Source of the DNA: Planctomycetia bacterium
GTDB lineage: Bacteria; Planctomycetota; UBA8108; SXIK01
Direction: 5' to 3'
DNA length: 64,000 nt
NCBI GenBank assembly: GCA_005772855.1
Contig: SXIK01000066.1
Location: 1,532-65,531, forward strand
The notes beneath the pieces are model-generated. The model saw nothing but the letters and a program-made list of their open reading frames with translations, was not told the origin of the DNA and searched no databases. The translations under genes and the position numbers were made by a program. Shown here piece by piece: positions 11,851 through 58,238 of the stretch. Every line of letters starts with the position of its first letter. The first letter of the stretch is position 1.

Positions 11851-12037
11851 CTTCTCTCTCCTAAAAAAAGTACCAGTTCCACCGCGATGCCGCGCGGCCC
11901 AAGTGATCCACCCTGAACGGCGACATCCAAGAATTGGGCGGCATGGTAATCGTTTTGAGAGCCCGTGGGAACATCCTGCCACGAGAATCTGGGAAGACCT
12001 CGCAGGAAGCCAGATCGCGGATTCCAGGATCCGGACG

Positions 12038-18433: not shown

Positions 18434-19465
18434 ATGGAAAAAGTCAACGTCGGCGACATCGAGCTGGTCCTCACTCAACCTGTGCAACAGGACCTCAATT
18501 GGATCGGGCAGGAGGATCTCGTCGAGCAAATTCTCGCCTCGTGGCTAGTGGCCGGTGAAAAAGACCTGCCGCTTTGCCCCAGGCTCATTGGCAAGCCAGG
18601 CGTGGGCAAGACAACCCTGGCATGCTTCGCCGCCCGCTCGGCCGGCCTCGAGACCTATATTCACCAGTGCACGGTGGACACCCGCCCCGAGGATCTGCTC
18701 GTGACCCCGGTCCTCTCGAGGAGCGGTAAGATCTCTTATCACGCGAGCCCCCTCGTCTCGGCAATGATCCGGGGCGGGGCCGTCATCCTGGACGAAGCGA
18801 ATCGCATGAGCGAAAAGTCCTGGGCCTCGCTCGCTCCCCTTCTCGACCACCGCCGGTACGTCGAGAGCATTGTCGCAGGCATCCGCATACCAGCGCACCC
18901 CGCTTTCCGTGCCTGCATCACCATGAACGAGGACGCCTCCACCTACGAGATTCCCGACTACATGCTCTCACGCATCCAGCCGTCTGTCAGCGTGGAGTTT
19001 CCGGAAAAGGAGGAGGAACTCCGCATCTTAAAGTACCACCTACCGTTCGCGGAGGAGGCAATCCTCGAGATGACGGTGAGCTTCCTCGAGGAGGCGCACA
19101 AGTATGGCCTGGGCCACTCCACAAGGGACGGAATCAACATCGCCCGGTATTCATTCAAGATGGCAGAGCGAGAACGCCGGCGCGGCGTTCCCGAGCACGA
19201 GATGACAAGCCTCAAGGACCGCTTCACCCGGGCCGTCCAGAAAATCCTTGGCGAGGATGCGCTCGCCTTCAAGAGTCAGTCCGTCGAGGAGCCTCCGCAA
19301 CAGCTCATGGACTTGCGGGATTTCTTTACTGCGCTCGACGACATGAATGTCAACGAGTCGAAGCCACCGAAGAAGCCCGAGAAACCCAAGCGAAAAGGAC
19401 GGGGACGGAAGCCCCGGCCGAAGCCGGAGGACGGCGCCGGCGACTCCGGGGACGAGCCCTTCTGA
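18434..19465 (+). CDS. MoxR-like AAA+ ATPase (AAA_5/CbbQ-NorQ-GvpN-like) with a Lys/Arg/Pro-rich C-terminal tail
   Basis: Walker A LIGKPGVGKTTLA; Walker B AVILDEANRM; sensor-1 ITMNEDAS. Tail KPPKKPEKPKRKGRGRKPRPKPEDGAGDSGDEPF. It is divergent from the ABC operon and stops 2 nt before the next gene. Confidence 0.85.
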   Translation: MEKVNVGDIELVLTQPVQQDLNWIGQEDLVEQILASWLVAGEKDLPLCPRLIGKPGVGKTTLACFAARSAGLETYIHQCTVDTRPEDLLVTPVLSRSGKISYHASPLVSAMIRGGAVILDEANRMSEKSWASLAPLLDHRRYVESIVAGIRIPAHPAFRACITMNEDASTYEIPDYMLSRIQPSVSVEFPEKEEELRILKYHLPFAEEAILEMTVSFLEEAHKYGLGHSTRDGINIARYSFKMAERERRRGVPEHEMTSLKDRFTRAVQKILGEDALAFKSQSVEEPPQQLMDLRDFFTALDDMNVNESKPPKKPEKPKRKGRGRKPRPKPEDGAGDSGDEPF

Positions 19466-22384: not shown

Positions 22385-23527
22385 TCAGACGGCCTGACGC
22401 TGCAAAATGAGCGCATCAAGCTCGAGCTTCAACCGGTCCAGCACCTCGTTGTAGCCGAACGTTCCGATCTCGACGTCCTTCTTCTTGAAGTTCACGTGGC
22501 GCGAGCCGCACCAGAGGCCCAGGTCGGCTTGGTCGGTCTCGCCCGGGCCGTTCACCCTGCAACCCATGACTGCGATCGTGATGTCATGCTCCTTGGCGTA
22601 GTGGGTCAGTTCCTTCACCTGAACCGCGAGCTCGACAAAGGCCTCGTTCTCGACTCGAGAGCAACTCGGGCAGGAGATAATGTTAAGGCCTCCGGAAAGC
22701 TGAGGGACCGACCGGAACCGACCGTTGCTCATGTCATCGAGAATTTCGAGCCCAGCCACCACCTCCTCATACTTCCTCGGATTGGGAAGCGTGAGCGAGA
22801 CACGAAGCGTGTCACCAATTCCTCGGGTGAGCAGTTGCTCGAAAGCAATGCGCGTCTTGATCACGCCGTCGGGCGGCAGCCCCGCCTCCGTCACGCCAAG
22901 GTGCAAGGGCACCTCCGGCCGCTCCTTGGCGAAGCGTGCGTTCGCCTCAATCACGTTGAGTGGATTTGAGTCCTTGAGCGAGACGACGAACCGCTTGAAG
23001 CCGATCGAGTCGAGGATCTCGGCATGGTCAAGAGCGCACTGCACCATCGCCTGAATGTCGTCGTCCTCATACTTCTCCTTGTAGGCAGGGTCGACGGAGC
23101 CGCAGTTGACACCCACGCGAAGCGCGCAGCCATGCTCGGCAGCCGCAGCCGCGATGAACTTCACCTTGTCCGCCACCGGCTTCGTTTTCTCCACGTGGTA
23201 AAGGTGCCCAGGGTTGTACCTGACCTTGTCGACGTGAGGGGCGACCCGGGTGACCAGGCGGTAGTTTTCCTGGAGGTCCACGACAAGGTTCGCCGGCGTT
23301 CGCCGGCGAATCTCCGCCAGAGCCTCGACGTCCTTGATGTTGTCGCAGGCGACTCGGACCAGGCCGGCGCCAGCCTTTCGGATCGACTCGGCCTGCTCCA
23401 CGGTCGCCTCGATATCCTGAGTATGCGTGGCGGTCATGCTCTGAACGAGGATCGGATGGCCACCACCGATGAAGTGGTTCCCCACTTTCACCTCGCGCGT
23501 GGGGTTGCGCGTGAAGCTCAGGCTCAT
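22385..23527 (-). CDS. ispG: 4-hydroxy-3-methylbut-2-en-1-yl diphosphate synthase (IspG/GcpE)
   Basis: ORF 22385..23611, trimmed to [32 protein letters not shown].... Conserved GcpE core and the C-terminal [4Fe-4S] cysteines (CPSCSR...GCRVNGPGE). Confidence 0.92.
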
Positions 23528-23591
23528 TACTGTGGATTCCTTGTCAAAAAGTGAAGTCGAGGATTGTAAGACTCGCCACGACCGGGGGTCA

Positions 23592-25949
23592 ATGGAGATC
23601 AACGCGTGCAACCGAGTCTTTTTTGCCCTCGCAGCCTTGATGGCCCTCGTCAGCCGGATCGATGCTCAGGCACCACCCCCCTCTGCGGGGCGTCCTGTGC
23701 GCACGATCACTCTGGAGGGACGGGAGCTCTATCCCGAGGAGACCATCCTGGAGAGAGCCGGCATTCGTCCCGGCGACACCTGGACGGAGGCCTCCGAGGC
23801 CCGGGTCCTGGAGCGGCTTGCCGCATGGCCTTTCCTCGCCTCGGTGGGCTTGCCCCGTGTACTTGAAGCGCCCGATGGCGGCGTCGATCTATTCCTTCCC
23901 GTCCGTGAGCTACGGACCACGGGTCGCATCACCTTTCACGGCAACGATTCGCTCCTCTCGGCGACTCTGAAAGAGGCGTCAGGGCTGGCGAAGGGCGCCC
24001 CACTATCGGAAGACTCAGTCCGGGGGGCCGAGGAAGCAATCATCGATCGCTACCAGGACGACGGGTTTCTGCTGGCCTCCGTCGACGGCGTGGCCACGCC
24101 CGGCCCCGGCGGCCGGGCCGACCTGGACTTCACCGTCCACGAGGGCCGCAGGGTCTACTTGAGCGCAGTTCGCCTGGAGGGGGCCTCGCAGGTCCCGGCC
24201 AACGAGGTCCTGAGTCTGATCGAGACTCAGCCGCGCCGTCTCTTCGGACTCATCACGCGCGGCTACTACAGACCCGGCAGGATCGAGGCCGACCTGGATC
24301 GTCTACGCCGAGTCTATTGGTCGAAAGGGTACCTCGAGGTCGAATTGGGCTTCGGAGGAATCGAGCTCAACGAGAAACGCAATGAGGCGACCTTGACAAT
24401 CCAGGTGCGCGAGGGCCCTCGCTACGAGATCCGGAACGTCCGGATCGAAGGCCAACGGCTCTTTTCACGGCAGCACCTTGAGCTGGACGGATCGCTTCCT
24501 TCGGGGGGCTTCTACACAGGCAAGCTGGTTGAGGACACCTACCGAAGAATTCTCCGCTGGTACCAGGAGCACGCCGACATCGCCCCCGTGGTCCGCGTGC
24601 GCCACGAATATCCAAGCCCACTCAGGGTGGACCTGGTCTACGAGATCCGCGAGGAGGAGCACTACTTCACCGGCCTCGTACAAATCACGGGAAACGATCG
24701 ATCGCTCGACCGGGTCTTCCGCCGCGACGTGACGCTCGTGCCCGGCAAGCCTCTCACGGAGAGCGAAATCGAACGGACCAGGGACCGACTCAAGGCCAAC
24801 GGCATTCTGGAAAGTTTCGAAATCCGCCAGAGGCGCACCGACGACCCTCACGTGCGCGACGTTCAGATCGCCCTTACCGAGAAGCGGCAGACGGGAGGGT
24901 TCCGGGCTGGCGGGGGCGCCTCGGCTGGCGCGGGAGAAGTAGCCTACTTCAGCATCCACGAGTCCAATCTCGACATCTTTCGACTACCCGGCGGCGGGAC
25001 GGCGTGGAACCAGGCCTTTCGGGGAGGCGGGCAAACCCTCGACATCGAAGTCATCCCGGGAACACGGGAGTCCCAGTACCAGTTCCGGTTCGTTGAGCCT
25101 TATCTCTTCCGAAGCGACCTGGCACTCGGGCTCGGAGGGCTGACCAGCCTTTACGACCGGAGGAGCTACGACGAGTCCCACCTACGCGGCGCAGCGACAA
25201 TTCAGAAATTCTTCGACCGAGACCACCGGCTTTCGCTGTCGGTTGGCTACATCGCCGACGCTGTCGCGATCAACAACGTCGACTCGGACGCGCCTCAGGA
25301 CGTCCTCGACGCCGGAGGCCACACGTTTCTCGGGTATCCAAGGGTCGAGCTCAAGTACAACAATGTGGTCAGCAGCTACTTCTCGGGTCCGCGAGGCTTC
25401 ACGGCCACTCTTCGCGCCGACTTCGCCGACTCGGCAACAGGCTCGAGAGTGAATTTCGCTCGGACCACACTCACCGCCGACTGGGCCGTGGGCCTCTTCG
25501 ACGATCGAAGCGACTACCAACACGTGCTTCGTGTGAGTGTCGACGGGGGTTGGGTCGAGGGGCGTGGCGAGGCTCTGCCGCTCTTTGAGCGGTTTTACCT
25601 GGGCGGTCCCCGGTCGTTTCCCGGCTTCAGTTACCGGAGCGTTGGCCCTCGCGAGGGCCGAACGACCCTGGGCGGAGAGGGCATGGTCCACGGAAGCATC
25701 GAGTACTCGCTGCCGATGGTACGCCCCGAAGTACGCCCCTTTGCATTCTTCGGGTGGGGCGACCTCGAGCCCAGTTTCTCCCGGCTCTCCGACGAACGGT
25801 TCCGCACTGCGGCCGGCGGAGGAATTCATTTCCGCCTGAAGCTCGGTGAGCAGCACCTCCCCGCCACGCTTTACTGGGTGAAGGCCCTCTCGAGCGAAAC
25901 CGACGACCGGGAGCAGCTCTTTTCCTTCACGGTGGGCATTAACTTTTGA
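23592..25949 (+). CDS. Omp85-family outer-membrane protein assembly factor (BamA-like) with POTRA repeats and a C-terminal beta-barrel
   Basis: ORF 23469..25949, trimmed to [27 protein letters not shown] (signal peptide; ATG at 23592). Repeated POTRA-like modules ([22 protein letters not shown]..., [21 protein letters not shown]...), a Bac_surface_Ag-type barrel and a C-terminal ...FTVGINF. Divergent from ispG. Confidence 0.85.
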
Positions 25950-29621: not shown

Positions 29622-31066
29622 CTCCGGAAAAAACTAGCTGGGCATTGGCCCAGGAGATCTTCCATGCCATCGGAATGGCTGCCGTCGCCTCCCAGACGTA
29701 CTCGGTAAGCCATCGGCGGGTTGCGGAGGCGCTCGAGAAGGCGATCAGCCTGATCGAGCATCTCTTCCAGCAATTGACCAAAGCACAACACATTACCTTC
29801 ATGAGAAGCGGTGATCAGATCGAGTTCCGCAATGTCCCCCTGGCAAGAACAGGATACCTGGGCGATCGCCTTGCAAGGGCACTGAAGGCAAGGGGGTGCG
29901 CCGGGCTACAGCTCGAGCGAGGCATCACCGCACAGGATCTGGTCGCCCTCCTCACCGAGTTGCGCTGCGCCCGAATCCCGGACGGCGGATTCTCCGGGGA
30001 AGGAGAGAAGAATCGGGAGGGCGCAGTTCCAAAGTTCCATCTGGCCAGCCAGGCCGAGATCGACGAGATCCGCGCCAAGAACCTCCTTGGCCGCGGGGCG
30101 ACCTGGGGAACCCATGCCATCCCCGACCTCTCGGTATTCGAGGGAACCGCTCAAAATCTTCTCTCCGCCTACCGCGGGGTCTTCGCAAACCTGGGCCAGC
30201 CGATTCGTTTCAGCAAGGGGCTTCTTGCCGAGACCGTCGATCGAGTGGTGGCACTCCTCGGCTCCGAAAAGGAGCGCCTCGTGCTGGGGGCCAGCGGCGA
30301 ATATTTCGACGACTTCACGTACCGTCACTCGGTGAATGTTTGCCTCATCACGGCAATGCTCGCGAGCGAGATCATCAAGGACCCTCAGACTCTGCGCAGG
30401 ATCTCCGTGGCGGCGCTTCTGCATGATGTGGGGAAGGGCCGCGTGCCCGAGGAGATTCTCCACAAGCCTGGGAGGCTCACTCCTGAGGAGGAGGCCGTGG
30501 TGCAACTGCACCCCGGGCACGGGGCAGAGATTCTCCTCGCCGCGGAGGACATGGACCCCCTTTGCATTGCGGTGGCGTTTGGACACCACAAGGTCCTGGG
30601 ACGAAGCCCTTACCCTGGCACGCTTCGGCCGTATACGTGCGACTGGATCACACGCCTCGTCTCAATCGTCGATGTATACGAGGCCCTCACCGCCCAGCGA
30701 CCCTACAAGCGAGGCATGTCCACCGATGCTGCCTTCAAGATCATGCTGACAATGCCTGGAATGGATTCCCAGACACACCTCCTGAGGCTCCTTTACAACA
30801 CCTTGAGTCCCTTCCCCGTCGGGTCACTGGTTGAGCTATCAACCGGCGAACGAGCTGTCGTCACGGGGCTGAATCCTGAGACCCCCCGGCTCCCGAGGGT
30901 TCGAGTCTTGACCGATCCGTCTCGCCAGGAGTTGGCTGAGCCGCTCGACCTGGACCTCTCCCAACCGAGCACCTCGGCCTACCGAGGGACTCCTCGAGTT
31001 GTGAGTCAGGCAGTCGTCAAGCAGTCGCTGGACCACGACGCTCTCGCCGAAAATATCGAGCCCTAG
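29615..31066 (+). CDS. HD-GYP-type (HD superfamily) protein with a degenerate GYP signature; putative c-di-GMP phosphodiesterase or sensor
   Basis: ORF 29147..31066, trimmed to MLTPEKTSW (ATG at 29615, AGGAGG upstream). HD motif LLHDVGKGRVPEEILHKPGRLTPEE, a second His cluster AFGHHKVLGRSPYPG replacing the canonical HHE..DGSGYP, and a roughly 250-aa N-terminal domain of unknown function. Confidence 0.8.
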   Translation: MLTPEKTSWALAQEIFHAIGMAAVASQTYSVSHRRVAEALEKAISLIEHLFQQLTKAQHITFMRSGDQIEFRNVPLARTGYLGDRLARALKARGCAGLQLERGITAQDLVALLTELRCARIPDGGFSGEGEKNREGAVPKFHLASQAEIDEIRAKNLLGRGATWGTHAIPDLSVFEGTAQNLLSAYRGVFANLGQPIRFSKGLLAETVDRVVALLGSEKERLVLGASGEYFDDFTYRHSVNVCLITAMLASEIIKDPQTLRRISVAALLHDVGKGRVPEEILHKPGRLTPEEEAVVQLHPGHGAEILLAAEDMDPLCIAVAFGHHKVLGRSPYPGTLRPYTCDWITRLVSIVDVYEALTAQRPYKRGMSTDAAFKIMLTMPGMDSQTHLLRLLYNTLSPFPVGSLVELSTGERAVVTGLNPETPRLPRVRVLTDPSRQELAEPLDLDLSQPSTSAYRGTPRVVSQAVVKQSLDHDALAENIEP

Positions 31067-32194: not shown

Positions 32195-33274
32195 TTGTCA
32201 CGTAACCACACTATCCACCCTGATGCCATTCCAGCTGGCGTCCTGGTCTTCGCCTCCGATTCGACGCACGGACACTCCGTTTCACTCTTGATTCAGCGTG
32301 CAGGCTTCCGCCGAGTTCTCGAGGCCAGCGAAATGGGGCTGGTGGACGATATCGTGGCGACTGGAGTTGTCCGCGCCGTCTTGCTGGCCATCGACGCAGA
32401 GGCCCCTGAAGCCCCTGGCCTCGTGGCCGGCCTGCGAGCCACGGCCGGGAGGTCAGGAAAGCGGCTCGCGATTCTTGTCCTGGCCCCTCACCCACCCCGT
32501 ACCCCTGTCCCCGCACGCGTCCACCTGGGCATCGACCAGCTGCTCCTGGAGCCGTTTGATCCGCTGGAGTTTGCGGACCAGTTCTCGAGGGTATTCGCCG
32601 ACACACAGTACGCTCCGGAGCCACATCCGGCCGCCTGCGAATGCTTGCCACGAACCGCGATTGCCGCACTCGCCCAGGTTGCCTCCTTGATCGAGCAGCG
32701 AGAGGACCCTTCCGGGAAACACACCGAGCGCGTGGGAGACATTTCCGCGGCCATTGCAAGGGGGATGGAATTCGAGGAGCAAGAGGTCGAGACCCTACGC
32801 CTCGCGGCTCAACTGCATGACCTGGGCAAGGCCTCGGTGGGTGACGCCATTATTCTCAAGCCGAGCCGGCTGACCGGGGAGGAGTTCGAGCGCCTCAAAA
32901 TCCACACCCTGGAAGGCGCCAGATTACTCGAGGGCACAGGACTTCCGCTCCTCGATGCGGCCGCCCAAATCGCGGCGCACCACCACGAGGCGTGGAATGG
33001 GTCGGGATACCCCCATGGCCTCAAGGGAGAGGCCATACCGCTCAGGGGAAGGATTGTGGCGCTGGCGGATTTCTTTGACTCGTTGACTCATGACCGAGTC
33101 TATCGACGCGCGCTCCCGAGGGACTTGGTCATCGAGACCGTGAAGACAAACGCCAACGAGCAGTTTGATCCTGAAGTTGTTCGCGCCTTCCTGAAGATCA
33201 GTAGCTCGACGACCGAGAGCCAAGTAGCGCAAGAAGTACAGCTTGTGGCAGTCACGGGGAGCTCCGAAACTTGA
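32195..33274 (+). CDS. Response-regulator-like receiver domain fused to a canonical HD-GYP c-di-GMP phosphodiesterase domain (RpfG-like)
   Basis: N-terminal CheY-like region (VLVFASDS...AVLLAIDAEAP). C-terminal HD-GYP with LHDLGK and HHHEAWNGSGYPHGL. Confidence 0.85.
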   Translation: MSRNHTIHPDAIPAGVLVFASDSTHGHSVSLLIQRAGFRRVLEASEMGLVDDIVATGVVRAVLLAIDAEAPEAPGLVAGLRATAGRSGKRLAILVLAPHPPRTPVPARVHLGIDQLLLEPFDPLEFADQFSRVFADTQYAPEPHPAACECLPRTAIAALAQVASLIEQREDPSGKHTERVGDISAAIARGMEFEEQEVETLRLAAQLHDLGKASVGDAIILKPSRLTGEEFERLKIHTLEGARLLEGTGLPLLDAAAQIAAHHHEAWNGSGYPHGLKGEAIPLRGRIVALADFFDSLTHDRVYRRALPRDLVIETVKTNANEQFDPEVVRAFLKISSSTTESQVAQEVQLVAVTGSSET

Positions 33275-36042: not shown

Positions 36043-37020
36043 TCACCGATCGACGAAACTGGCCATGGGCCGCGTGTGCTGTGAATCTTCCCAGCCGGTC
36101 GCCTGCGCATGAACCCTGTCACGCCCTTCCTTCTTCGCGTGGTAGGTGGCGCTGTCAACACAGCGAACAAGGTCTTCCGGCCCTTTCATTTCGTCGCGGA
36201 GCTGAGCGACTCCAAAGCTCGCCGTCAGGTGGATGGTTCGTTGACCTGCGGTGATCGCAAGTGCCTTGAGCTTTTCACGCAAGCGCTCCGCGTAAAGTGT
36301 CGCACCCTCAAGGTCCGTTTCAGGCAGAATCAAGACCGCTTCTTCACCCCCATAACGGCACGCGAAGTCAGTACCTCGAGCATTCGCCAGCAGCAAATTG
36401 GAGATCTCGATCAGAACCTTGTCCCCGATCGGGTGACCGTAGGTGTCGTTGATCCCCTTGAAGTTGTCGACGTCCATGAGAACAAGAGAGAGCGGACGTT
36501 GGTAACGGCGTGAGCGGTGAAACTCCCGGATGAGCGTGCTCTGGAAAAAGCCACGGTTATATAGGCCTGTAAGCGCATCCGTGCTAGCACTTCTGAGAAG
36601 AGAGTCTTCCGCCCGAAAGGTCACCTCGTCCCAGAGGTAAAAACCGATGAGCGTTCGCCCCAGGAGGATCTTGTCGCCGTTCGATAGCTCCTTGGTGCTG
36701 ATGCGGACACCGTTCACATAAGTGCCATTCCTGCTGTCCAGGTCAGTCAGGGCGATCTGCGGTTTGGCGACTGGCTCACTCAGGTTCGTGAAAATGAATC
36801 GTGCATGGCGGCGGGAGCAATTTGCGTCGTGAAGAACAATATCGGCGGTGTCATCACGGCCCACCGTGAGCTCCTGTTGCTTGATCTCGTATCGCCGCGA
36901 GGTTCGCCGTCCGTCGAGTACGACCAGGACGGCGTGCTCCCTCCCCGACGGGAGACAGGTGGGATCGAGGCCCCAGGGCTGCTGGGCACCGTTCAAGCTC
37001 TTCGTGTCGGGTATTTTCAT
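36043..37020 (-). CDS. FHA-domain-containing diguanylate cyclase (FHA-GGDEF)
   Basis: ORF 36043..37032; the first ATG is at MKIPDTK. FHA block TVGRDDTADIVLHDANCSRRHARF...DLDSRNGTYVNGVRI. GGDEF domain with I-site RGTD and the active-site variant RYGGEEA (GGEEA in place of GGEEF). Confidence 0.85.
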   Translation of the reverse strand: MKIPDTKSLNGAQQPWGLDPTCLPSGREHAVLVVLDGRRTSRRYEIKQQELTVGRDDTADIVLHDANCSRRHARFIFTNLSEPVAKPQIALTDLDSRNGTYVNGVRISTKELSNGDKILLGRTLIGFYLWDEVTFRAEDSLLRSASTDALTGLYNRGFFQSTLIREFHRSRRYQRPLSLVLMDVDNFKGINDTYGHPIGDKVLIEISNLLLANARGTDFACRYGGEEAVLILPETDLEGATLYAERLREKLKALAITAGQRTIHLTASFGVAQLRDEMKGPEDLVRCVDSATYHAKKEGRDRVHAQATGWEDSQHTRPMASFVDR

Positions 37021-37231
37021 TTCATGCTGCAAAGAGAAGCTCTCCCGGACTTCAATCGGCAGCGTCCAGGGAGGGGGTTGACCCTTTGCTTTTCCCGGCC
37101 TTGCTCAATGGTTTGTTATCACCACTTCCAACAAGCTTCGGCGGTTGCGTTGTAAGATTCCGGTGGGCTGGATGCCAGGGCTAGTCGCGCACCCCAGCGA
37201 CTCGCAAAGCGGACTCCAGAGGGGTCCTGGC

Positions 37232-41560: not shown

Positions 41561-42709
41561 CTATTCAAGTCGCAGATCTGCGACTCGGAGGCCCCTTTGC
41601 ATTCGGCACAGTGTGGGGCAGGCCACTTTGACCGCTATGGGAATGATTTCCTGACCTAGCCGCCATGCCGCCTCCGGGGGTGGTGACTGGGTGGGGTGGA
41701 TCAAGAACACTTGCTCCTCGGCCAATTCCAGGAGACTGGCCTTTCCCGGGATCCAATTGGGTGACGCGCAGGCATATGCTGCCTCCAAACTCGACAGATA
41801 GGCTGCGATGTTCTCGTTTCCTTCAGCAGGCAGAGGAGCCTTCGCCATTCCGTAGCTGCCAAACGCTCCACTTCCGCTACTCCCGGAGCGCTGCAGAAGA
41901 ATCTCCGGAACGAGCGCCGACAAGAGGATGAATTCAGCAGTTCTGCTGGCCACCACTTCAAGATTGGCGGAGACCATGAATGCTTGATCAAAGGCCCTCG
42001 AGTTTTCGATCTCCTGAATTGCGCCGCGGAAGCTGCCCCACGCCTTCGGAAAGGGTCGTGTCAGAAGGTGCAGCACTGTTCGCCCTCTTGAGCCTCGCCC
42101 GAAAAATTCCCGGAGGTCGAGTAGCAAGTCTGGCAATACAGTCACCCAGGGATCTTCTATCCCAATAACAACATGGGCCGTAACCCTGGACTCATGAGAC
42201 TTCGCGAGGTGCTCTGCCAGAAGAGGTAGTGGGCTATTGGTGCCTGCGGTTGCTCTATACAACGCACGTAGATACTCTCCATATCTTGGATTGAAAGTGA
42301 CTTCTGTCTCGCTGTTCGATTCAAAAATCACAGGAATCACCTCCGGGGCCAAGTCTCTGCCGCGGGACGTCTCCAGGTCAAGATAGAAGAGTTGCGGGAA
42401 GGCGCCTGGCTTTCGCTGTTGGGCCAACGCCGCAAGGGTGGCTCGTCCCATTTCGCCAATCGCGATCACTGCCGTCTGAGCATCTGGACCTCCGAGTATG
42501 TCGGCAGCTTCTATCACCCTCCCAAGAGGTAGAGACAGGAGTTGGCCATCGAGCGCGCCTGCGTGAAGGAGCATGGAGCTTGCACCGAGGAGGTCTTTCA
42601 AACTCTCCAGGTCGACAGGTTCCGAAAGCGCCTCTTCGATCAGGCCCCGCAGCTGGCTGAACGCACCGGGTTCACCCAAGCGCAGAGCCACATCTTCCGT
42701 CCAGCTCAT
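41561..42709 (-). CDS. Hypothetical protein, 382 aa
   Basis: The long ORF is on the cluster strand and its stop is 142 nt upstream of the kinase start. Codon usage matches its neighbours; no motif recognised. Confidence 0.55.
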   Translation of the reverse strand: MSWTEDVALRLGEPGAFSQLRGLIEEALSEPVDLESLKDLLGASSMLLHAGALDGQLLSLPLGRVIEAADILGGPDAQTAVIAIGEMGRATLAALAQQRKPGAFPQLFYLDLETSRGRDLAPEVIPVIFESNSETEVTFNPRYGEYLRALYRATAGTNSPLPLLAEHLAKSHESRVTAHVVIGIEDPWVTVLPDLLLDLREFFGRGSRGRTVLHLLTRPFPKAWGSFRGAIQEIENSRAFDQAFMVSANLEVVASRTAEFILLSALVPEILLQRSGSSGSGAFGSYGMAKAPLPAEGNENIAAYLSSLEAAYACASPNWIPGKASLLELAEEQVFLIHPTQSPPPEAAWRLGQEIIPIAVKVACPTLCRMQRGLRVADLRLE

Positions 42710-43326
42710 GGCGCAGACCCCGGGTTGTCATTCCTTTGTCCGCCCCTTGCCCGCTGTCGTGGCCTGGACCCAAGAAGAACGGAAAGCTGCTCGAGGCCTT
42801 GCTTCGCAACGTGCAGCAAGTCACGCCGTACAAGATCGAGCGCAATCTTGATCCGCTCGGCACGTCGGTCAAGGAGGAGAAGTCGCGAACGAAACTTGAA
42901 CCCCACGTGCGCGCCAACTGGGTACTCCGCAAAAGACCTCTCCAGGGTCTTTTCCTCGCCAACGAACGCCTCTATCTCCGGGAGCATTCTTTCCCAGCGG
43001 GACCCAAGTGCTTCGAAGCCATGGGGCACTTCCTCATACTCGACTCCCTTGCCTGAAATAACACTGCTCCCACTCAACAAGGGTGCAAGAAAGAATCGAG
43101 AGATCCTTGCCCAGGCGTCGCACACTCGTTGCCCGCTTCGAGCCTCATCGAGAATTCCAAGGCTGCGAGATGCCTCTCGGAACGCTTCCACCGCTCTGGA
43201 CAGGCTTTCGAGGCGCCGCTCAGCATCCAGCAACCCACCGATGGCAGACACGAGTTCCTCGGGCTTTGCACCGGGAGAATCCACGGTCGAAAGAGACTCT
43301 CTGATAAATCCTGGCAGGCGGCTCAT
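42706..43326 (-). CDS. Hypothetical protein, 206 aa
   Basis: Stop overlaps the start of the downstream 382-aa gene by 4 nt (translational coupling). Largely helical-looking; no motif recognised. Confidence 0.5.
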   Translation of the reverse strand: MSRLPGFIRESLSTVDSPGAKPEELVSAIGGLLDAERRLESLSRAVEAFREASRSLGILDEARSGQRVCDAWARISRFFLAPLLSGSSVISGKGVEYEEVPHGFEALGSRWERMLPEIEAFVGEEKTLERSFAEYPVGAHVGFKFRSRLLLLDRRAERIKIALDLVRRDLLHVAKQGLEQLSVLLGSRPRQRARGGQRNDNPGSAP

Positions 43327-48296: not shown

Positions 48297-51200
48297 TCAC
48301 CAATCAACGATGATTGTCGAGTAGTCCACAACACCCGGAACTTTCACGCTGGCTCGCAGCTGGTTTCCGCTTTTCCCTACCCAGCCGTTATAGGGGAAAT
48401 CCTCGCCCGGAGTGAGCGTGACACTTCGTCCGCTCGCCGTGGTAATACGCAGCTTGCCATCCGGCTGAAGTCGAAGCGAGAGAAGTGATTTCTCCCCCTC
48501 GCCCTTCCTTCCAGCGCCATCGTGCAAGACGAACACGTCCGGGCACGAGTCCCCGTTCCGGGCCCCCTCCCCCTGGGCGATGCACACATCGGCGCCCCGT
48601 ATCGGAAGGCGCTTCTCCGTCTCAAGACAAAGCTCTGTGCGCACTTCGGAGAGGCGATCTTGAATCAACTTGAGGCGCTTCGCGTTTCTCTGCGGATCGG
48701 AGAAAATAGAAGTCTCCATGGAGAAATGATCGGTTACCCAGGCCTCCACCTCGGCTCCCGAAACCTTTCCGTTGAGCTCCAGCGGCCCGATCGTTCGATT
48801 CGCAAGTGTAATGCGAAGGCTTCCAGTCAGGCTCTCTCTGGGCTCGGCTTCAAGATCGTGGATCGCCTTGTCCTTCCGGACACTGACACGCTCAAGAACT
48901 TGTTGTCGATCCCGGTAATACCCGAGGCCTCTGATCCCAAGGAATCCCAGAAGCACGACAAGACCGGCCAAGGCCCCGTAGAGAAGTCCTGTGTACGCTC
49001 GCTCCGTGCTCCCCTTCGTCGCCTCGAACTCGAACTTGCGCTGGAGCGGTGTCTTGCCCCTGATATCGAGCTGAAGCGTATGTTTTCCAAAACCTGCCGG
49101 GGTATAGGGGACAAAGACCACGAGGCCCGAGGTCGCCGTGTCGACATCAAGCACCTTCTCGCGTCCGTCCTCGGACACGACGATCGCCGCGACGCTCTTG
49201 CGAAGCGAGTCCTCCGACTCGACCAGCCCGCCGATGCGATACCCCAGACGGATGCTGGAATCCCTGGGAATGCTGAAGACCGGAGGCAAGTCCCTCGTTT
49301 CATAACCTGACGGCCCCTTCTCGAAGCTCATTACCTCCACAAGGGTTCCGCCTCCGCGGACAATATCGAGATCCAGCCCGTCGAACTCGATCGCGTTAGG
49401 CTCGGCCGCCCGATCCGTCAACCGGAGACGAACCTTCACGGCGCTCGTCGAGAGTGGCTTCGTCGAAAACGAGTTGAGAATGAGCACTCCAGGCGGCGTT
49501 CCCTTCTCGGCTTCCCACTGGGTAAATTCGACGTTGAGCTGCTGAGCACCCTCGCCAAGAAGTCCGGGCCGCAAGACAAACAAACGATCAAAGCTCTCCT
49601 TGTCGAGGGACGGCGGCCCGCTGATCTTGACCGAAAGAGGAAGTTTTTGGCCATCATCAAGCTTGATTGTTGTGCCAAGGTCGCGGGACCACTGGAGCTT
49701 GAGGGGCGGCTCCACGAGGAACTTCTCCTCGACCGTCCAACTCGTACCCTGCCCGAGACTGGCTTCGGCACGGACCCTGTAATTACCTTCTTTCTTGGGT
49801 GACCAGACCAGCTCTGTCGAGTCAGAAGAAGCCATCTGGGTGCTGGCTGCATCGACCTCGCCTCCGGAGTAGAGTTGAATCCTGGAATTTCGCTGCGGAG
49901 CCTGCCCTTCGATCGTCACCCGCAAGCGCTCTCGGGCCATGAAGGGCAACACGGTCGCGCCAGCCCCCAGGTCTTGCTCCTCGGCTCGGCTAAAGACGAG
50001 TTGAAGGGTCGACGGGCCAATCGCGACTTTCCGCTGCTCGATGGCCTCGCCCTCCCTCGTGTTCACCGACACCACGAAGCTGTCCTTCAGGCCCTTCTCG
50101 GCGGCGGCGTTGAGGTACGCGGCAAATTCGATCCTCACGCCGAACAGAGCCTCGAGGGTGGCCTCCTTGGGAGGCGGAAGTAGCTCGAACCCCTCAAGCA
50201 CGTTGGCCGGCGTCGTTGAAATGAAGGGTCGCAAGATCAGCTCCTTGCCTGCCTCCTCGCGTTGCGACTTCAATCCACCGCGCACGATGACAGCCCCTTC
50301 GATATACGTACGCTCCCCGCGTCCGATATCCGACGGAGGCGATTTTGTCCAGGCCACCTCGTATTTCAGGGACACGGGGTTCACATCCAGGGTCCCGAGG
50401 GACAACTCAAAGGTGCGTCCACCCGCGTCGCTGATCGTGAGAGCCAGAGTGTTCCTTTTTTCCAGGCTTTCCAGTGAGATCGGCTCCGAACGGAACTTGC
50501 CCTCGGCCTCCGACCAGCGGATGTCGCCCTTGCGCCCGTTGAGATACAACTCGGCGCTCACAACCTTCTCCGTTCCGGTCTTCCCGGTGGCCGACGCAGG
50601 CTCCACGCTCACCCAGATCACTCCTTCGCCCTGGCTACTTGACTGGTCGGTTCCCGCGCCGAGCAGGACCCTCTGGTCGGTGCCTTGCGAGCTCTTCACG
50701 ACCGTTGCCGAGAATGGACAGGGGCGCACGTTGAAAAAACAGGCGGCGATATCCTGCCCTAGCTTGGCCAGTGGCGAGCTGACGACAAGCTTGTGAGTAC
50801 CCGGATCAAGCACCACGGCCTCAAGGGTGCCTATCAAGGCGTCACCTTGCAGGGTCAGGTCAACATGATGAATCTGCTCGGACTCGCCGATCGTGACATT
50901 CGCAGGCTGCGATTGCCAGACGCTGAGAAGATCACGTTGAGTCTGCGCATTCTGGCCGCCCATCGCACGCAAGCGGAAGCGAATGGCTGATCCACGCTGG
51001 CCCAGGAGCACGTCCCCGTCGATGGGCTCGATCACTATTCCGAGCGCCCTGGTGCGTGAGAAGACCTCGTAGTCTTCCGTGATGACTCGATCCATCGATC
51101 CGTCATTCCATTTCATGACGACATGAAGCTTCGCTGGTCCCGTGTGAAAGTCAGTCGTGGCAAACGCGAGCGAATAGTGCCCGTCGAGTTCCTTCACAGC

Positions 51201-53585
51201 CTTGACCTCCTGGGGAGCGCCCACATCCTTTCGAGCCCAGGTGAGAGTGCCAGCAATCGAGCTTTTTACCTTATCAGGAAAGACCTGGCTGGGAGAAACC
51301 CTGAACAGTAGTGGACTGCCAGCCAGTACAGTGGGCTTCCCCGCCTCAGTTTCGAGGGCTCTTCCCCCCTCCGAGGTGAATCCAGCTGTGAACGCTCGGG
51401 GCTTCACCTCAAGCCTGTCACAGCGTTGGTCGCTTGTCGGATCAGGACCCATGGGTCTCTTCTCGGGCCATGCAATCAGATAAATCCCCGGCTCCAGCCC
51501 GCCGAGCTCTCCGCGGTAGTTGGCCGAGATCTCAGCGTCACCAGATCTTGGCGTCTCGCTGACAAGAGTCACCTGCCGGACAAGCACCCAGCTACCGCTC
51601 GCATCATCCCTCTTCAGGAGAGAAATCTTTGAAGGTGCTGATGACTCTGTCTCCCAATACTGGGCGGTGGCAGCCGGCGTGAGGTGATTCATGGTGCGCG
51701 ATCTCGAGATCTGCACAATTTCACCCTGATAGAACGCGCCGAGGTCACGCCCCTGGGCACTATCGGTACCATCCTTCGAGTACTGGCTGCCCGGCGGACG
51801 AAAGTCGTCGCGAAGAACCCTCAGACTAAACAGGGCTTCCTGAACGCCGCCGGCCTTCACTGTCACCTTCGCCTCGTAGAGACCGGGCGTTGTGGGAAAA
51901 ATCCAGTCACTCGAGAAAGTCCGGGGAACGCCACCAGAATCCTTCATGCGAAGTCTGCGTGCGGCGCTCTCGCCGACGGCTCCGAATGTCGCGCTGACCT
52001 CCGTCTCCGCAAGAGACTCCTGTCCTCCGTAAGTGAGCTCAAGCCTCACCTCCTGACCCAGCTCCACATCCACATTGCGCCGGCTCGCAGGACGAGAGGC
52101 GCTTTCGGGCTCGCCCTTCCAATTCTTTCGCACAAACCAGTCGAAGCTCGACGGCACTACCATGAAAGAACGGTCGGGGGCCCGGCTGAGAGGCCGTTTA
52201 CTGACCGCGCTATCAGCCGAGGCCCCCGTGTACACGAGGCTGGCTTTCGTTCTCAGGAAGAAAGACTCCTGAATCTTGGCCTCCCCCTTGGGCGAGGACG
52301 TGGGGATAAAGTAGAGACGGTTTCCAGCTCCCGCTGAAATTTCGGCTGCGGAAAGCGATTTGTTATCAAGAATCTTGCCTTCCGAATCACTCAGCTCGAT
52401 CTTCACACTCGACTTCTTCAACGTGTCCTGAATCGAACGAGCGCGCTCGGGGGTGAGGTCGGCGGGCAAAGAGATCCGGAATCGAATGGGATAGACCTCG
52501 TTCTCGCTGATCTTTGTCTTCACACCCTCGGCAGCGACCGTACCCTCATCTCCAAGGCCTGGAAGCGCCTCCAGCCGAACATTGGAAATCACGAAGACGT
52601 CGCCCGACGCCGGAACGCCGCTGCGGCTGGGCAAGAACTCAACCCATTCCGGCCAACGAACATTCTCTCCCGGGCTCAAGACGACCACGGTACGGTTGCG
52701 ATAGGGGGTGATGGTCGCATCAAACTCGCCGCTGATCAGCTTCGGGTTGTCGAGGTTGATATCCATCTCTCTCGACCCTATTCGGAGCTTCACATCTCGG
52801 GCATTTCTCTGGAAGACGCAGAAGAGTTGCCGGTCCGTTGGCCAGGTGGCCAGACGTGCCGAGATCGGTTCACGGTGGAAGGACATGTGGGGGGCAATCA
52901 GCTCAATCAAGATGTCCTCAATTCCCCGTTCAGGCTGGACTTGTGCCGCAGCACCCCCCGTCTTTCTGGCAAGATCCCGCAACAGGTCCTCCCCGGCCTG
53001 AAGTTGCTTGTCTTCATAGTAGAGCTTCTCGCGACGACGCTTCTCCCGCTCTGCCTTCGGGATCGAAAAGTCGTTGAGGAGGATCGTGTTGATGGCCAGG
53101 CCGATCTCTTGTAAGCCTCTTTTCTCCTCATCGAGACGACCCGCCAGGTTGGGAGCCTTGCCAGCCTGCACGCCGTCAGAAAGAAGGAAGAGATGAACGT
53201 CAGCAGCGCGGCCTTCCGGCTGGACGATCTTGCGGGCAAGGCTCAGCGCCGCGCCAATATCCGTGTCTCCCAGAGGCGGATCCTCCGAGATCAGTTTTCT
53301 GAGCGCTTCAAGATTCTGCGGACGCACCACCTCCCGGGAAAGGACAGCCTCAGGCGTGCCAGCAAAGCGGATAATCGTGAGACGGTGAGTCTCGTCCAGG
53401 CCTTGCACCAGGAGGTCCACCAGGATCTTCTGCGCATCGAAGCGGCAGTTGTAGGGATCATTCTGCGTCATGCTCTCGGAACGGTCGAGAACAAGAACCC
53501 AGTCCGTCTCCGCAGCGGATCTGGTAGTGAGCAGAAACTGCATGAGGGCGGCAGCAGACAAGACGACAAGCCTATTGTGCATCAT
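48297..53585 (-). CDS. Giant (1762 aa) signal-peptide protein with an N-terminal von Willebrand A (MIDAS) domain, long beta-rich ectodomain, single C-proximal TM helix and a cytoplasmic tail
   Basis: Signal peptide MMHNRLVVLSAAALMQFLLTTRSAAETDW. VWA with MIDAS LVLDRSESM...TDIGAAL...LSDG. About 1300 aa of repetitive beta-strand-like sequence. TM helix YTGLLYGALAGLVVLLGFLGIRGLGYY followed by about 270 cytoplasmic residues. The start is 9 nt after the upstream gene stop. Confidence 0.8.
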   Translation of the reverse strand: MMHNRLVVLSAAALMQFLLTTRSAAETDWVLVLDRSESMTQNDPYNCRFDAQKILVDLLVQGLDETHRLTIIRFAGTPEAVLSREVVRPQNLEALRKLISEDPPLGDTDIGAALSLARKIVQPEGRAADVHLFLLSDGVQAGKAPNLAGRLDEEKRGLQEIGLAINTILLNDFSIPKAEREKRRREKLYYEDKQLQAGEDLLRDLARKTGGAAAQVQPERGIEDILIELIAPHMSFHREPISARLATWPTDRQLFCVFQRNARDVKLRIGSREMDINLDNPKLISGEFDATITPYRNRTVVVLSPGENVRWPEWVEFLPSRSGVPASGDVFVISNVRLEALPGLGDEGTVAAEGVKTKISENEVYPIRFRISLPADLTPERARSIQDTLKKSSVKIELSDSEGKILDNKSLSAAEISAGAGNRLYFIPTSSPKGEAKIQESFFLRTKASLVYTGASADSAVSKRPLSRAPDRSFMVVPSSFDWFVRKNWKGEPESASRPASRRNVDVELGQEVRLELTYGGQESLAETEVSATFGAVGESAARRLRMKDSGGVPRTFSSDWIFPTTPGLYEAKVTVKAGGVQEALFSLRVLRDDFRPPGSQYSKDGTDSAQGRDLGAFYQGEIVQISRSRTMNHLTPAATAQYWETESSAPSKISLLKRDDASGSWVLVRQVTLVSETPRSGDAEISANYRGELGGLEPGIYLIAWPEKRPMGPDPTSDQRCDRLEVKPRAFTAGFTSEGGRALETEAGKPTVLAGSPLLFRVSPSQVFPDKVKSSIAGTLTWARKDVGAPQEVKAVKELDGHYSLAFATTDFHTGPAKLHVVMKWNDGSMDRVITEDYEVFSRTRALGIVIEPIDGDVLLGQRGSAIRFRLRAMGGQNAQTQRDLLSVWQSQPANVTIGESEQIHHVDLTLQGDALIGTLEAVVLDPGTHKLVVSSPLAKLGQDIAACFFNVRPCPFSATVVKSSQGTDQRVLLGAGTDQSSSQGEGVIWVSVEPASATGKTGTEKVVSAELYLNGRKGDIRWSEAEGKFRSEPISLESLEKRNTLALTISDAGGRTFELSLGTLDVNPVSLKYEVAWTKSPPSDIGRGERTYIEGAVIVRGGLKSQREEAGKELILRPFISTTPANVLEGFELLPPPKEATLEALFGVRIEFAAYLNAAAEKGLKDSFVVSVNTREGEAIEQRKVAIGPSTLQLVFSRAEEQDLGAGATVLPFMARERLRVTIEGQAPQRNSRIQLYSGGEVDAASTQMASSDSTELVWSPKKEGNYRVRAEASLGQGTSWTVEEKFLVEPPLKLQWSRDLGTTIKLDDGQKLPLSVKISGPPSLDKESFDRLFVLRPGLLGEGAQQLNVEFTQWEAEKGTPPGVLILNSFSTKPLSTSAVKVRLRLTDRAAEPNAIEFDGLDLDIVRGGGTLVEVMSFEKGPSGYETRDLPPVFSIPRDSSIRLGYRIGGLVESEDSLRKSVAAIVVSEDGREKVLDVDTATSGLVVFVPYTPAGFGKHTLQLDIRGKTPLQRKFEFEATKGSTERAYTGLLYGALAGLVVLLGFLGIRGLGYYRDRQQVLERVSVRKDKAIHDLEAEPRESLTGSLRITLANRTIGPLELNGKVSGAEVEAWVTDHFSMETSIFSDPQRNAKRLKLIQDRLSEVRTELCLETEKRLPIRGADVCIAQGEGARNGDSCPDVFVLHDGAGRKGEGEKSLLSLRLQPDGKLRITTASGRSVTLTPGEDFPYNGWVGKSGNQLRASVKVPGVVDYSTIIVDW

Positions 53586-57198: not shown

Positions 57199-57254
57199 AG
57201 GTGGGAGTATACGCGGGAGTTCACTCCTGGACGGACGCGTTACAATCTGCCGTC

Positions 57255-58238
57255 ATGTCCAACCCAAAGGTCGGCGTATTACTGGCCCAGCTCGGAACTC
57301 CCGAAGCGCCCACGGCGGAAGCGCTACGGCCCTACCTCAAGGAATTCCTCAGCGACCCTCGCGTGATCGAAGTGAACCGTGCGCTCTGGTGGCTGATCTT
57401 GAACGGCATCATTCTGCGCTTCCGACCCAGGCGCTCCGCCGCGCTTTACCAGCGCATCTGGAGGCCCAACGGCTCGCCTCTGCGCATCTACACGGCGGAG
57501 CAGGCTTGCGCCCTTCAAGGCAAGCTGGGAAGCCAGGTCGCTGTCGACTTTGGCATGCGCTACGGCAAGCCGTCGGCCTCCACGGTCCTCGACAAGCTCT
57601 GCGCTCTGGGAATTGAGAAGTTGCTCATCTTCCCCATGTTTCCCCAGTACTGCGCCGCCACGACAGCCTCGGTTTACGACGCCGTCTTCGATCACTTCAA
57701 GGCAAGGCGAGTTGTGCCTGCGATTCGCTTCGTGCCACCTTATCCAGCGCATCCGGCATACATTGGCGCTCTGGCCACCATCGCGAGGCAGGAGTTTGCA
57801 CGCCTCCCGTGGAAGCCAGACAAGATCCTCTTCTCCTTTCATGGGATTCCAAAGCGCTACATCGACAAGGGGGACCCCTACAAGGCACATGTGGGCGCCA
57901 CCGCCTGCGCGCTCGCTGATGCGCTCGGATTGCAACCTGCCGATTACGAGCTCTGCTTTCAATCTCGCTTCGGCAAGGAGGAATGGCTACAACCCTACAC
58001 AGACGAGAAGCTCGGGGAGTTGGCTCGCTCGGGCGTCAGGAAAGTTGTTGCGTTGTGCCCCGGTTTCACAACAGACTGCCTCGAAACGATCGACGAAATT
58101 GGCCGGGAGTCACGGCACAAGTTCAAGGAGGCTGGAGGTGAGGAGTTGCAACTCGTTCCTTGCCTCAACGATCACCCGGCCTGGATCGAGGCCATGGCAA
58201 CCATCGCACATGAGGAGCTTTCAGGATGGGGAGTTTAG
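57255..58238 (+). CDS. hemH: Ferrochelatase
   Basis: ORF 57201..58238, trimmed to the ATG at MSNPKVGVLLAQLGTPE. Conserved ferrochelatase blocks (RYGKPS, FPMFPQY, SFHGIP) and the C-terminal Cys/His region. Confidence 0.9.
   Translation: MSNPKVGVLLAQLGTPEAPTAEALRPYLKEFLSDPRVIEVNRALWWLILNGIILRFRPRRSAALYQRIWRPNGSPLRIYTAEQACALQGKLGSQVAVDFGMRYGKPSASTVLDKLCALGIEKLLIFPMFPQYCAATTASVYDAVFDHFKARRVVPAIRFVPPYPAHPAYIGALATIARQEFARLPWKPDKILFSFHGIPKRYIDKGDPYKAHVGATACALADALGLQPADYELCFQSRFGKEEWLQPYTDEKLGELARSGVRKVVALCPGFTTDCLETIDEIGRESRHKFKEAGGEELQLVPCLNDHPAWIEAMATIAHEELSGWGV

Follow-up and report, generated by a model that had tools for sequence, protein, structure and literature searches.

Makarova and Koonin defined FtsZl1 in 2010 and reported that its predicted operons mostly include a gene for a VWA protein whose metal ion-dependent adhesion site (MIDAS) is intact and which is often secreted or membrane-bound (PMC2875224). 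These operons also encode kinases, a diverged P-loop GTPase, OmpA-like proteins, and lineage-specific membrane proteins, and the VWA-FtsZl1 combination was predicted to act as a membrane-associated machine; a reviewer saw a paradox in a cytoplasmic FtsZl1 that works with exported VWA proteins (PMC2875224). Kaur, Burroughs, Iyer, and Aravind (2020) subsequently recast firmicute and actinobacterial tubulin-VWA neighborhoods as GTPase-centric conflict systems, in which membrane proteins with extracellular VWA domains are explicitly described (PMC7159879). An exported, membrane-bound VWA protein beside FtsZl1 or tubulin is therefore not unprecedented (PMC2875224, PMC7159879). Here, we describe an oversized variant of this arrangement in a 64,000-nucleotide stretch of the genome of a Planctomycetia bacterium (contig SXIK01000066.1 of GenBank assembly GCA_005772855.1; the whole stretch is referred to below as the window). 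An open reading frame (ORF) of 1,762 codons (48297..53585, minus strand; ATG start) encodes a VWA protein of 1,762 amino acids (aa) next to an FtsZl1 (Tubulin_2) gene. Our favored explanation, to which we assign a probability of roughly 0.55, is that the VWA protein serves as a trans-membrane arm, connecting a MIDAS ligand in the periplasm with an FtsZl1 complex in the cytoplasm.

Fourteen full-length homologs of the VWA protein (1,755 to 1,822 aa; 44 to 67% identity) were obtained from metagenomes and Planctomycete metagenome-assembled genomes. Since they are alignable with it from end to end, the ORF is a genuine gene. It is the second gene of a six-gene cassette, A-VWA-FtsZl1-D-E-F, in which successive genes are separated by 9, 86, 3, 54, and -4 nt, and every gene from position 55475 down to position 36043 lies on the minus strand. 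The original prediction, which was made from the letters of the window, had placed the VWA gene between a tubulin-like gene and the first gene of a cluster, and this placement agrees with the gene coordinates (Table 1). We compared 11 distinct loci (the window, L001, L003, L005 to L008, L017, L018, L020, and L021), all of which keep the order A-VWA-FtsZl1-D-E-F as far as their contigs reach. The VWA gene adjoins the FtsZl1 gene on its upstream side in each of the nine loci with upstream flank, and gene A, which ends 9 nt ahead of the VWA start in the window, precedes the VWA gene in every related locus reaching that far. Separate protein searches with the VWA protein and with FtsZl1 led to the same contigs; the original prediction had put forward co-occurrence statistics with the tubulin-like gene as a check. 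Protein, genome, and metagenome searches for distant FtsZl1 loci returned only a tight clade at an identity of at least 67%, and the VWA protein family comprises about 15 sequences, all from uncultured Planctomycetes.

Within the cassette, conservation is highest in FtsZl1 (71 to 83% identity among the loci compared; 70 to 86% across the clade), whose T1 and T4 glycine loops are invariant, and lowest in VWA and F (37 to 62%). Strongly hydrophobic, transmembrane (TM)-like segments were found by a Kyte-Doolittle (KD) scan in the VWA protein and in D only; A, FtsZl1, E, and F are without them. The hydrophobic cluster of D probably forms a TM hairpin. None of the proteins A, D, E, and F matched a Pfam or NCBIfam family above the curated cutoff (a TPR_17 match on A was subthreshold), none carries a Walker A motif, and PDB sequence searches with the tail of the VWA protein, the VWA domain, A, D, and F gave nothing meaningful. 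The glycine-rich N-terminal motifs of D and F gave rise to the idea that both are degenerate tubulin paralogs, which was rejected when BLASTP and hhalign found no relation to FtsZl1. A promoter/terminator scan yielded fewer sites than expected by chance and was uninformative.

Compared with the operons of Makarova and Koonin, the locus shares the Tubulin_2/FtsZl1 gene directly after a MIDAS-intact VWA gene of a type that is often exported and lineage-specific membrane proteins within the operon. Kinases are frequent neighbors in those operons. The locus differs in the size of the VWA protein (1,762 aa versus roughly 300 to 870 aa in the examples seen), in its approximately 12 beta-sandwiches and 209-aa family-specific tail, in the accessory proteins A, D, E, and F that lack a Pfam or NCBIfam assignment, and in the absence of the diverged P-loop GTPase and OmpA-like genes that are frequent there. 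The Planctomycete FtsZl1 genes described in PMC2875224 are kinase fusions with FHA neighbors, unlike the arrangement in the window. The VWA-FtsZl1 operon with an exported VWA protein was known; the oversized variant described here, with its family-specific tail and four partner genes without a family match, is new.

The topology of the VWA protein was called from rule-based features and their conservation in the 14 family members, a KD scan, and a helix in an AlphaFold2 (AF2) model. At the N terminus, all 14 homologs have a variable n-region that is basic or neutral, a hydrophobic core of at least 10 residues, A or S at position -3, A or G at position -1, and E or D at position +1, and these features directly precede TDWVLVLDRS, the invariant first strand of the VWA fold (14 of 14). 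The hydrophobicity of the segment is too weak for a TM score in a 19-residue KD frame, and cleavage would fall at SAA↓E, after residue 25. Residues 30 to 148 matched two Pfam VWA profiles above the gathering threshold (i.e., VWA_2 [PF13519], E = 8.5e-14, 52.5 bits versus a cutoff of 27; VWA [PF00092], E = 3.4e-5, 24.6 versus 23.8 bits), and the MIDAS ligands (D34-x-S36-x-S38, T108, and D137) are invariant across the 14 homologs. The sole TM-grade segment of the protein (residues 1533 to 1551; KD score, 2.24) is kept in all 14, with more K and R residues after it than before it, and AF2 places it inside one continuous helix (residues 1526 to 1580; block predicted local distance difference test score [pLDDT], about 85 to 91). 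All 14 homologs therefore display the rule-based features of a type-I (N-out, C-in) bitopic protein with a cleavable signal peptide. The nearly invariant pair Cys949/Cys956 lies in the exported part, which fits an oxidizing compartment. On these points (a cleavable signal peptide that places the VWA domain outside the cytoplasm, an intact MIDAS, one TM helix near the C terminus, and a C-terminal tail inside), the features conserved in the family accord with the original prediction.

Mean pairwise identity differs among the regions of the protein: 68% in the VWA domain, 56% in the globular part of the tail, 50% in the juxtamembrane helix, 47% in the stalk, 30% in the TM segment, and 25% in the signal peptide. 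The VWA head and the cytoplasmic tail are thus the constrained parts, and a gradient of this form (VWA > tail > stalk > TM segment and signal peptide) would be expected if the head and the tail interact with other molecules and the stalk is a spacer. The earlier proposal that the tail, rather than the ectodomain, couples to the partner proteins gains plausibility from the higher identity of the globular tail than of the ectodomain (56% versus 47%) and from the lack of TM segments in A, FtsZl1, E, and F; the kinase that was named among those partners is not a conserved one (see below).

The tail measures 209 to 211 aa after the TM segment in the window protein (203 to 215 aa across the family), rather than the roughly 270 residues first estimated. 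An AF2 model of residues 1520 to 1762 (mean pLDDT, 82.5) runs from the TM segment into the juxtamembrane helix, after which come a beta-hairpin and three helices; the C-terminal part resembles a beta-sandwich. Foldseek found no significant fold match for this model (best E = 0.05), the tail had no match among PDB sequences, and a tail profile run against 1.84 billion representative proteins recovered family members only, together with one spurious match. The latter (P0024) is a 3,539-aa RTX-like repeat protein in which one 48-residue stretch was matched 12 times. We accordingly rejected the idea that the tail is a widespread domain; it is a family-specific alpha/beta domain. An FHA-like or other phospho-binding fold, which had been suggested as a point to examine by structure prediction, was rejected as well: FHA domains occur among the weak Foldseek matches (probabilities, 0.10 to 0.28), but no FHA or YscD-type profile matched any of 13 tails even at E values of up to 10, and the GR and NG dipeptides of the tail are too close together, without the SxxH loop between them that is looked for in pThr-binding FHA domains. 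The type III secretion system inner-ring proteins MxiG, PrgH, and YscD, which are bitopic with a cytoplasmic FHA-like domain, are a weak match. The tail gives no FHA or Yop-YscD_cpl Pfam signal, and these proteins have the opposite orientation, since the cytoplasmic domain is C-terminal here.

Because the window encodes a BamA homolog and a porin (Table 1), the organism is diderm, with an outer membrane. No autotransporter, type IX secretion system, PEP-CTERM, LPXTG, or lipobox signal was found in the VWA protein. The protein has a Sec signal, its C-terminal anchor is alpha-helical, and no signal for sorting to the outer membrane or the cell surface is present; in a diderm cell, its N-terminal region of about 1,500 residues is therefore predicted to be periplasmic and attached to the inner membrane.

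Most of this region is a stalk. The AF2 model of residues 226 to 1425 (positions 49311 to 52910; 14-sequence alignment) has a mean pLDDT of 80.5 and is nearly all beta, with roughly a dozen beta-sandwiches. Single alpha-helices interrupt it every 225 to 258 aa (at model residues 154, 412, 655, 881, and 1104, i.e., protein residues 379 to 390, 637 to 648, 880 to 891, 1106 to 1118, and 1329 to 1335), and this recurrence suggests that the stalk may consist of five ancient units of two domains each that have diverged in sequence. The original prediction of a very long repetitive ectodomain thus stands at the level of modeled structure and not at that of sequence. All-versus-all hhalign comparisons of 150-aa alignment segments detected no significant internal repeat (best probability, 8%), and Tandem Repeats Finder (TRF) found no DNA repeats in the ectodomain region of the gene. 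The best hhalign self-pair had an E value of 0.004 before correction for multiple tests; the three best pairs lie about 228, 235, and 706 aa apart, which is consistent with the spacing of the helices in the model. As to the domain annotation that had been called for, no Pfam domain was found between residues 226 and 1525 in any family member, while the AF2 model and Foldseek point to arrays of Ig-, macroglobulin-, and FN3-like beta-sandwiches. A beta-sandwich is roughly 4 nm long, so the extended stalk would measure about 45 to 55 nm, enough to reach the outer membrane.

Foldseek searches of the PDB with the stalk model returned only tandem Ig, macroglobulin, and FN3 arrays (i.e., the alpha-2-macroglobulin family, titin, contactin, and S-layer proteins). 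The top matches include many members of the alpha-2-macroglobulin/complement family, among them the inner-membrane-anchored ECAM of Escherichia coli (E = 1e-16 to 1e-18), and they raise the question of whether the VWA protein could be a periplasmic scaffold or alpha-2-macroglobulin-like trap that is independent of FtsZl1 and adjoins it through cotranscription only. The E values reach 1e-18, yet the TM-scores are only about 0.1, a combination that we read as a generic likeness among strings of beta-sandwiches. Moreover, the protein has no CxEQ thioester motif and no alpha-2-macroglobulin Pfam match, and the stalk model contains no large helical domain like the thioester-containing domain (TED); membership in the alpha-2-macroglobulin/thioester family was rejected on the basis of the missing motif, the missing helical domain, and the TM-scores. 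The unbroken adjacency to FtsZl1 (nine of nine loci) and the conserved cytoplasmic tail further argue for coupling between the two proteins, and we regard an independent trap as very improbable.

We now return to a trans-membrane arm and outline how it might work. After Sec export and cleavage by signal peptidase I, the protein would become a bitopic type-I protein of the inner membrane of a diderm Planctomycete. Its VWA head, held at the tip of a stalk of about 1,300 residues that would act as a spacer able to reach across the periplasm, would use the metal site of a working MIDAS to bind a ligand in the periplasm or the envelope. On the other side of the membrane, the conserved 209-residue tail, together with the putative TM-hairpin protein D, would tether or regulate the cytoplasmic FtsZl1 assembly. 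In this prokaryotic arrangement, the envelope would be connected to a tubulin-family protein, outside-in or inside-out, in the manner of an integrin, and the physiological role of the connection in this clade may be in membrane or envelope organization rather than in defense. The comparison with integrins is one of functional analogy only. The two share a MIDAS-bearing VWA/I-type head, a beta-sandwich leg, a single TM segment, and a tail directed to cytoskeletal proteins; they differ in that integrins have a beta-propeller, PSI and EGF domains, a heterodimeric structure, and actin adaptors, while the protein described here is a single chain in a periplasmic location, and its proposed partner is a tubulin-family protein. 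No integrin Pfam family was found in the VWA protein, and the homology shown does not extend beyond the VWA fold.

The original prediction had instead envisaged a cell-surface sensor or adhesin with its VWA head facing the surroundings of the cell, feeding into a signaling module made up of the GTPase and a kinase. The intact MIDAS and the long, adhesin-like beta-sandwich stalk are compatible with such a role, and genes for a kinase-STAND-TPR protein and an FHA-GGDEF protein follow the cassette on the same strand in this genome; kinases and FHA proteins also recur near Planctomycete FtsZl1 genes (PMC2875224, supplement). With an outer membrane present, however, the ectodomain would be periplasmic rather than exposed, and retention in the inner membrane is what would be expected from the export signal and anchor described above. 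In the window, the kinase gene follows F after a gap of 33 nt, but no kinase homolog was found in any of the six related loci that extend beyond gene F. Its adjacency thus appears to be lineage specific, and the kinase is not a core partner of the cassette as far as these loci indicate. We consider a surface adhesin or sensor improbable.

A tblastn search of plasmids with the FtsZl1 GTPase domain allowed a comparison across phyla. Three Thermales plasmids (Meiothermus taiwanensis pMtWR-220, Thermus oshimai pTHEOS01, and Allomeiothermus silvanus pMESIL01) carry a cassette of four genes, which encode in turn a VWA protein (about 555 aa), a tubulin-like protein (about 905 aa), a hypothetical protein (about 680 to 700 aa), and a Lon protease of the BrxL-like type. 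In Meiothermus and Thermus, the VWA protein has a lipoprotein-type signal, followed by a VWA domain with MIDAS, a beta-rich region, one TM segment, and some 100 aa of cytoplasmic tail. The order of the first three genes and the type-I topology of the VWA protein are thus shared with the window cassette, so the type-I layout recurs across phyla. The differences lie in the size of the VWA protein, its lipoprotein-type signal, its shorter tail, the BrxL-like protease, and the plasmid-borne, defense-like context. Read from its sequence, the third Meiothermus protein has no evident TM segment, whereas D of the window has its hydrophobic cluster.

Such contexts bear on the main rival to a trans-membrane arm, namely that the cassette is a conflict (antiphage or anti-invader) system in which the periplasmic VWA protein senses an invader peptide or envelope damage and triggers the tubulin-like assembly and its partners as an effector or abortive response. 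The tubulin genes and membrane-bound extracellular VWA proteins of PMC7159879 are grouped in just such systems. In the Thermales plasmids, the BrxL-like Lon gene follows the triad, and the cassettes sit among HEPN, DUF1156, WYL, TROVE, transposase, and exonuclease genes; we found no description of the Thermales cassette as a defense system in our literature search or in the BREX survey that was checked. A further conflict-like context is provided by plasmid pNPUN01 of Nostoc punctiforme (L012:6658-12213), which encodes a PstS-family binding protein, a 298-aa VWA protein, and a tubulin-like protein whose C terminus carries a zinc ribbon. The Nostoc VWA protein has an N-terminal anchor, C-terminal TM helices, and an external VWA domain, its gene adjoins the tubulin-like gene, and the pair lies beside CHAT and caspase genes. 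The faster divergence of VWA and F than of FtsZl1 would also suit a conflict system.

The GAP1-N2 conflict systems share with our cassette a tubulin homolog and a membrane-bound VWA protein with an extracytoplasmic VWA domain, and in their actinobacterial form a single membrane protein carries FNIII repeats together with a VWA domain and a beta-rich one (PMC7159879). They differ in having a GAP1/DO-GTPase with zinc ribbons and HSP70, none of which is present in this cassette, and the tubulin theme was reported to be limited to Firmicutes and Actinobacteria (PMC7159879), while the present case is a Planctomycete. No P-loop motif or GTPase Pfam match that would indicate a GAP1-N2/DO-type TRAFAC GTPase was found in any gene of the cassette, which is also without BrxL and without a recognizable effector domain. 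PADLOC-DB 2.0 models matched none of the six proteins (A, VWA, FtsZl1, D, E, and F). In the related loci, the cassette always occupies one chromosomal position, beside ferrochelatase and genes of sugar metabolism, and neither mobile elements nor defense genes lie close to it. Its neighbors have housekeeping or envelope-related functions; the flanks in the window and its relatives hold ferrochelatase (57201..58238 in the window) and glycosyltransferase genes, and those in the relatives also hold galactokinase. This stable chromosomal synteny and the high conservation of FtsZl1 weaken the conflict-system interpretation for this clade, and we judge it unlikely here.

The proposal of a trans-membrane arm has its own difficulties. 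We only infer the contact between the tail and FtsZl1. Homology of the Planctomycete tail and of D to their Thermales counterparts was not detected, and because the tail is family specific and shares no detectable homology with the Thermales tails, it is apparently not a universal FtsZl1-docking domain. The topology is itself read from conserved rule-based features. According to PMC2875224, FtsZl1 has no recognizable T6-H7 elements, so that its polymerization is itself only putative, and VWA-tubulin modules elsewhere (i.e., in Thermales, in Nostoc, and in PMC7159879) occur in defense-like neighborhoods.

A bolder version of the same proposal is a trans-envelope, integrin-like machine, in which a VWA leg that spans the periplasm would, by means of a new docking domain in the cytoplasm, physically connect a tubulin-family cytoskeletal element with the outer envelope and would serve membrane invagination, budding or division, or envelope mechanosensing. 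To our knowledge, Planctomycetes mostly lack FtsZ. We hold this version to be speculative and unlikely. If true, it would answer the objection raised in the 2010 review that a cytoplasmic FtsZl1 is paired with exported VWA proteins. Taken with its Thermales miniature, the window locus indicates that the VWA partner can be bitopic, with a conserved cytoplasmic tail, and the candidate point of coupling is now concrete (i.e., the VWA tail versus FtsZl1, D, E, or F). Our view of this module also changes: the kinase falls outside its core, and, the cell being diderm, the long ectodomain would lie in the periplasm. In practical terms, the significance is modest; the family is limited to a narrow group of uncultured Planctomycetes.

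Table 1 Positions of the cassette genes, the parts of the VWA protein, and other features (window coordinates, except for the plasmid loci in the last row)
Feature	Position	Strand	Remarks
Gene A, first cassette gene, ORF of 626 aa	53595..55475	-	Soluble, mostly helical/TPR-like, Pro-rich C terminus; weak TPR_17 match only
Putative signal peptide, residues 1-25 (MMHNR / LVVLSAAALMQFLLTT / RSAA↓E)	53511..53585	-	n/h/c character and small -3/-1 residues kept in 14/14 homologs
VWA domain with complete MIDAS, residues 26-225	52911..53510	-	Pfam VWA_2 and VWA; most conserved region of the protein
Predicted periplasmic stalk, residues 226-1525, about 12-13 beta-sandwich domains	49011..52910	-	AF2 model
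Single TM helix, residues 1531-1553	48927..48995	-	KD 2.24; 14/14 members; positive-inside charge after it
Predicted cytoplasmic tail, residues 1554-1762	48300..48926	-	Juxtamembrane helix and alpha/beta globular domain; invariant NGW-GK-G-Q---SVKV-G at end
FtsZl1/Tubulin_2 protein, 909 aa	45481..48210	-	Pfam PF13809, E = 4.1e-40; T1 GLGGTGQ, T4 AGGTGGG
Gene D, 698 aa	43381..45477	-	Two soluble halves around hydrophobic cluster 381-438 (KD scan); conserved in all loci
Gene E, 206 aa, soluble	42706..43326	-	Conserved order; 4-nt overlap with gene F
Gene F, 382 aa, soluble, last conserved cassette gene	41561..42709	-	Conserved order
Ser/Thr kinase-STAND(AAA_16)-TPR protein, 1,431 aa	37232..41527	-	Pfam Pkinase, E = 1.2e-44
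FHA-GGDEF diguanylate cyclase, window specific	36043..37032	-	Pfam FHA, E = 1.5e-19; GGDEF, E = 1.5e-45; directly downstream of kinase
BamA homolog (POTRA x2 and Omp85)	23469..25949	+	Window gene
Porin O/P-like protein	10408-11982	-	Window gene
Three Thermales cassettes	L011:7210-15287, L015:5308-13267, L016:5279-14371		Plasmids; L015 = pTHEOS01

Some observations concern the gene boundaries of the cassette and its plasmid counterparts. The ORF of gene A in Table 1 is a mechanical one that starts at a TTG codon; public gene calls give 556 aa from a GTG at 55265, and the homologs are alignable only from about residue 30 to 50 on. On T. oshimai pTHEOS01 (L015:5197-5307), the VWA coding sequence is annotated from MFLVDTSGSM, but translation from an ATG farther upstream in the same frame would add MTRFFPALLWGWALAWAAC, and this extension is a lipoprotein-type signal matching that of the Meiothermus ortholog; the RefSeq start is probably too far downstream. 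An IS701 element lies just upstream of the VWA gene of A. silvanus and may have truncated it.

Downstream of the cassette, PADLOC returned only generic kinase matches for the kinase. The FHA-GGDEF protein encoded after it is probably its phospho-reader, and the pairing suggests a relay from Thr phosphorylation to cyclic di-GMP (c-di-GMP) beside the FtsZl1 cassette of this genome only. It parallels the kinase-fused FtsZl1 and FHA neighbors of other Planctomycetes, where an FHA-fused diguanylate phosphodiesterase (Pirellula staleyi) and an FHA-domain protein (Blastopirellula marina) were reported near FtsZl1 (PMC2875224).

Elsewhere in the window, a 1,226-aa ORF (13683-17363, minus strand) had no Pfam match at E values of up to 1e-5. 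A MoxR-like AAA ATPase gene (AAA_5/AAA_3; 18434-19465, plus strand) is followed 2 nt later by a gene for a 645-aa protein without a Pfam match (19468-21405, plus strand), and the two may represent a MoxR and VWA-type pair. Two HD_5 (HD-GYP-type) proteins are encoded at 29147-31066 and 32195-33274 (both plus strand), near the FHA-GGDEF gene, so that c-di-GMP signaling genes are clustered downstream of the cassette.

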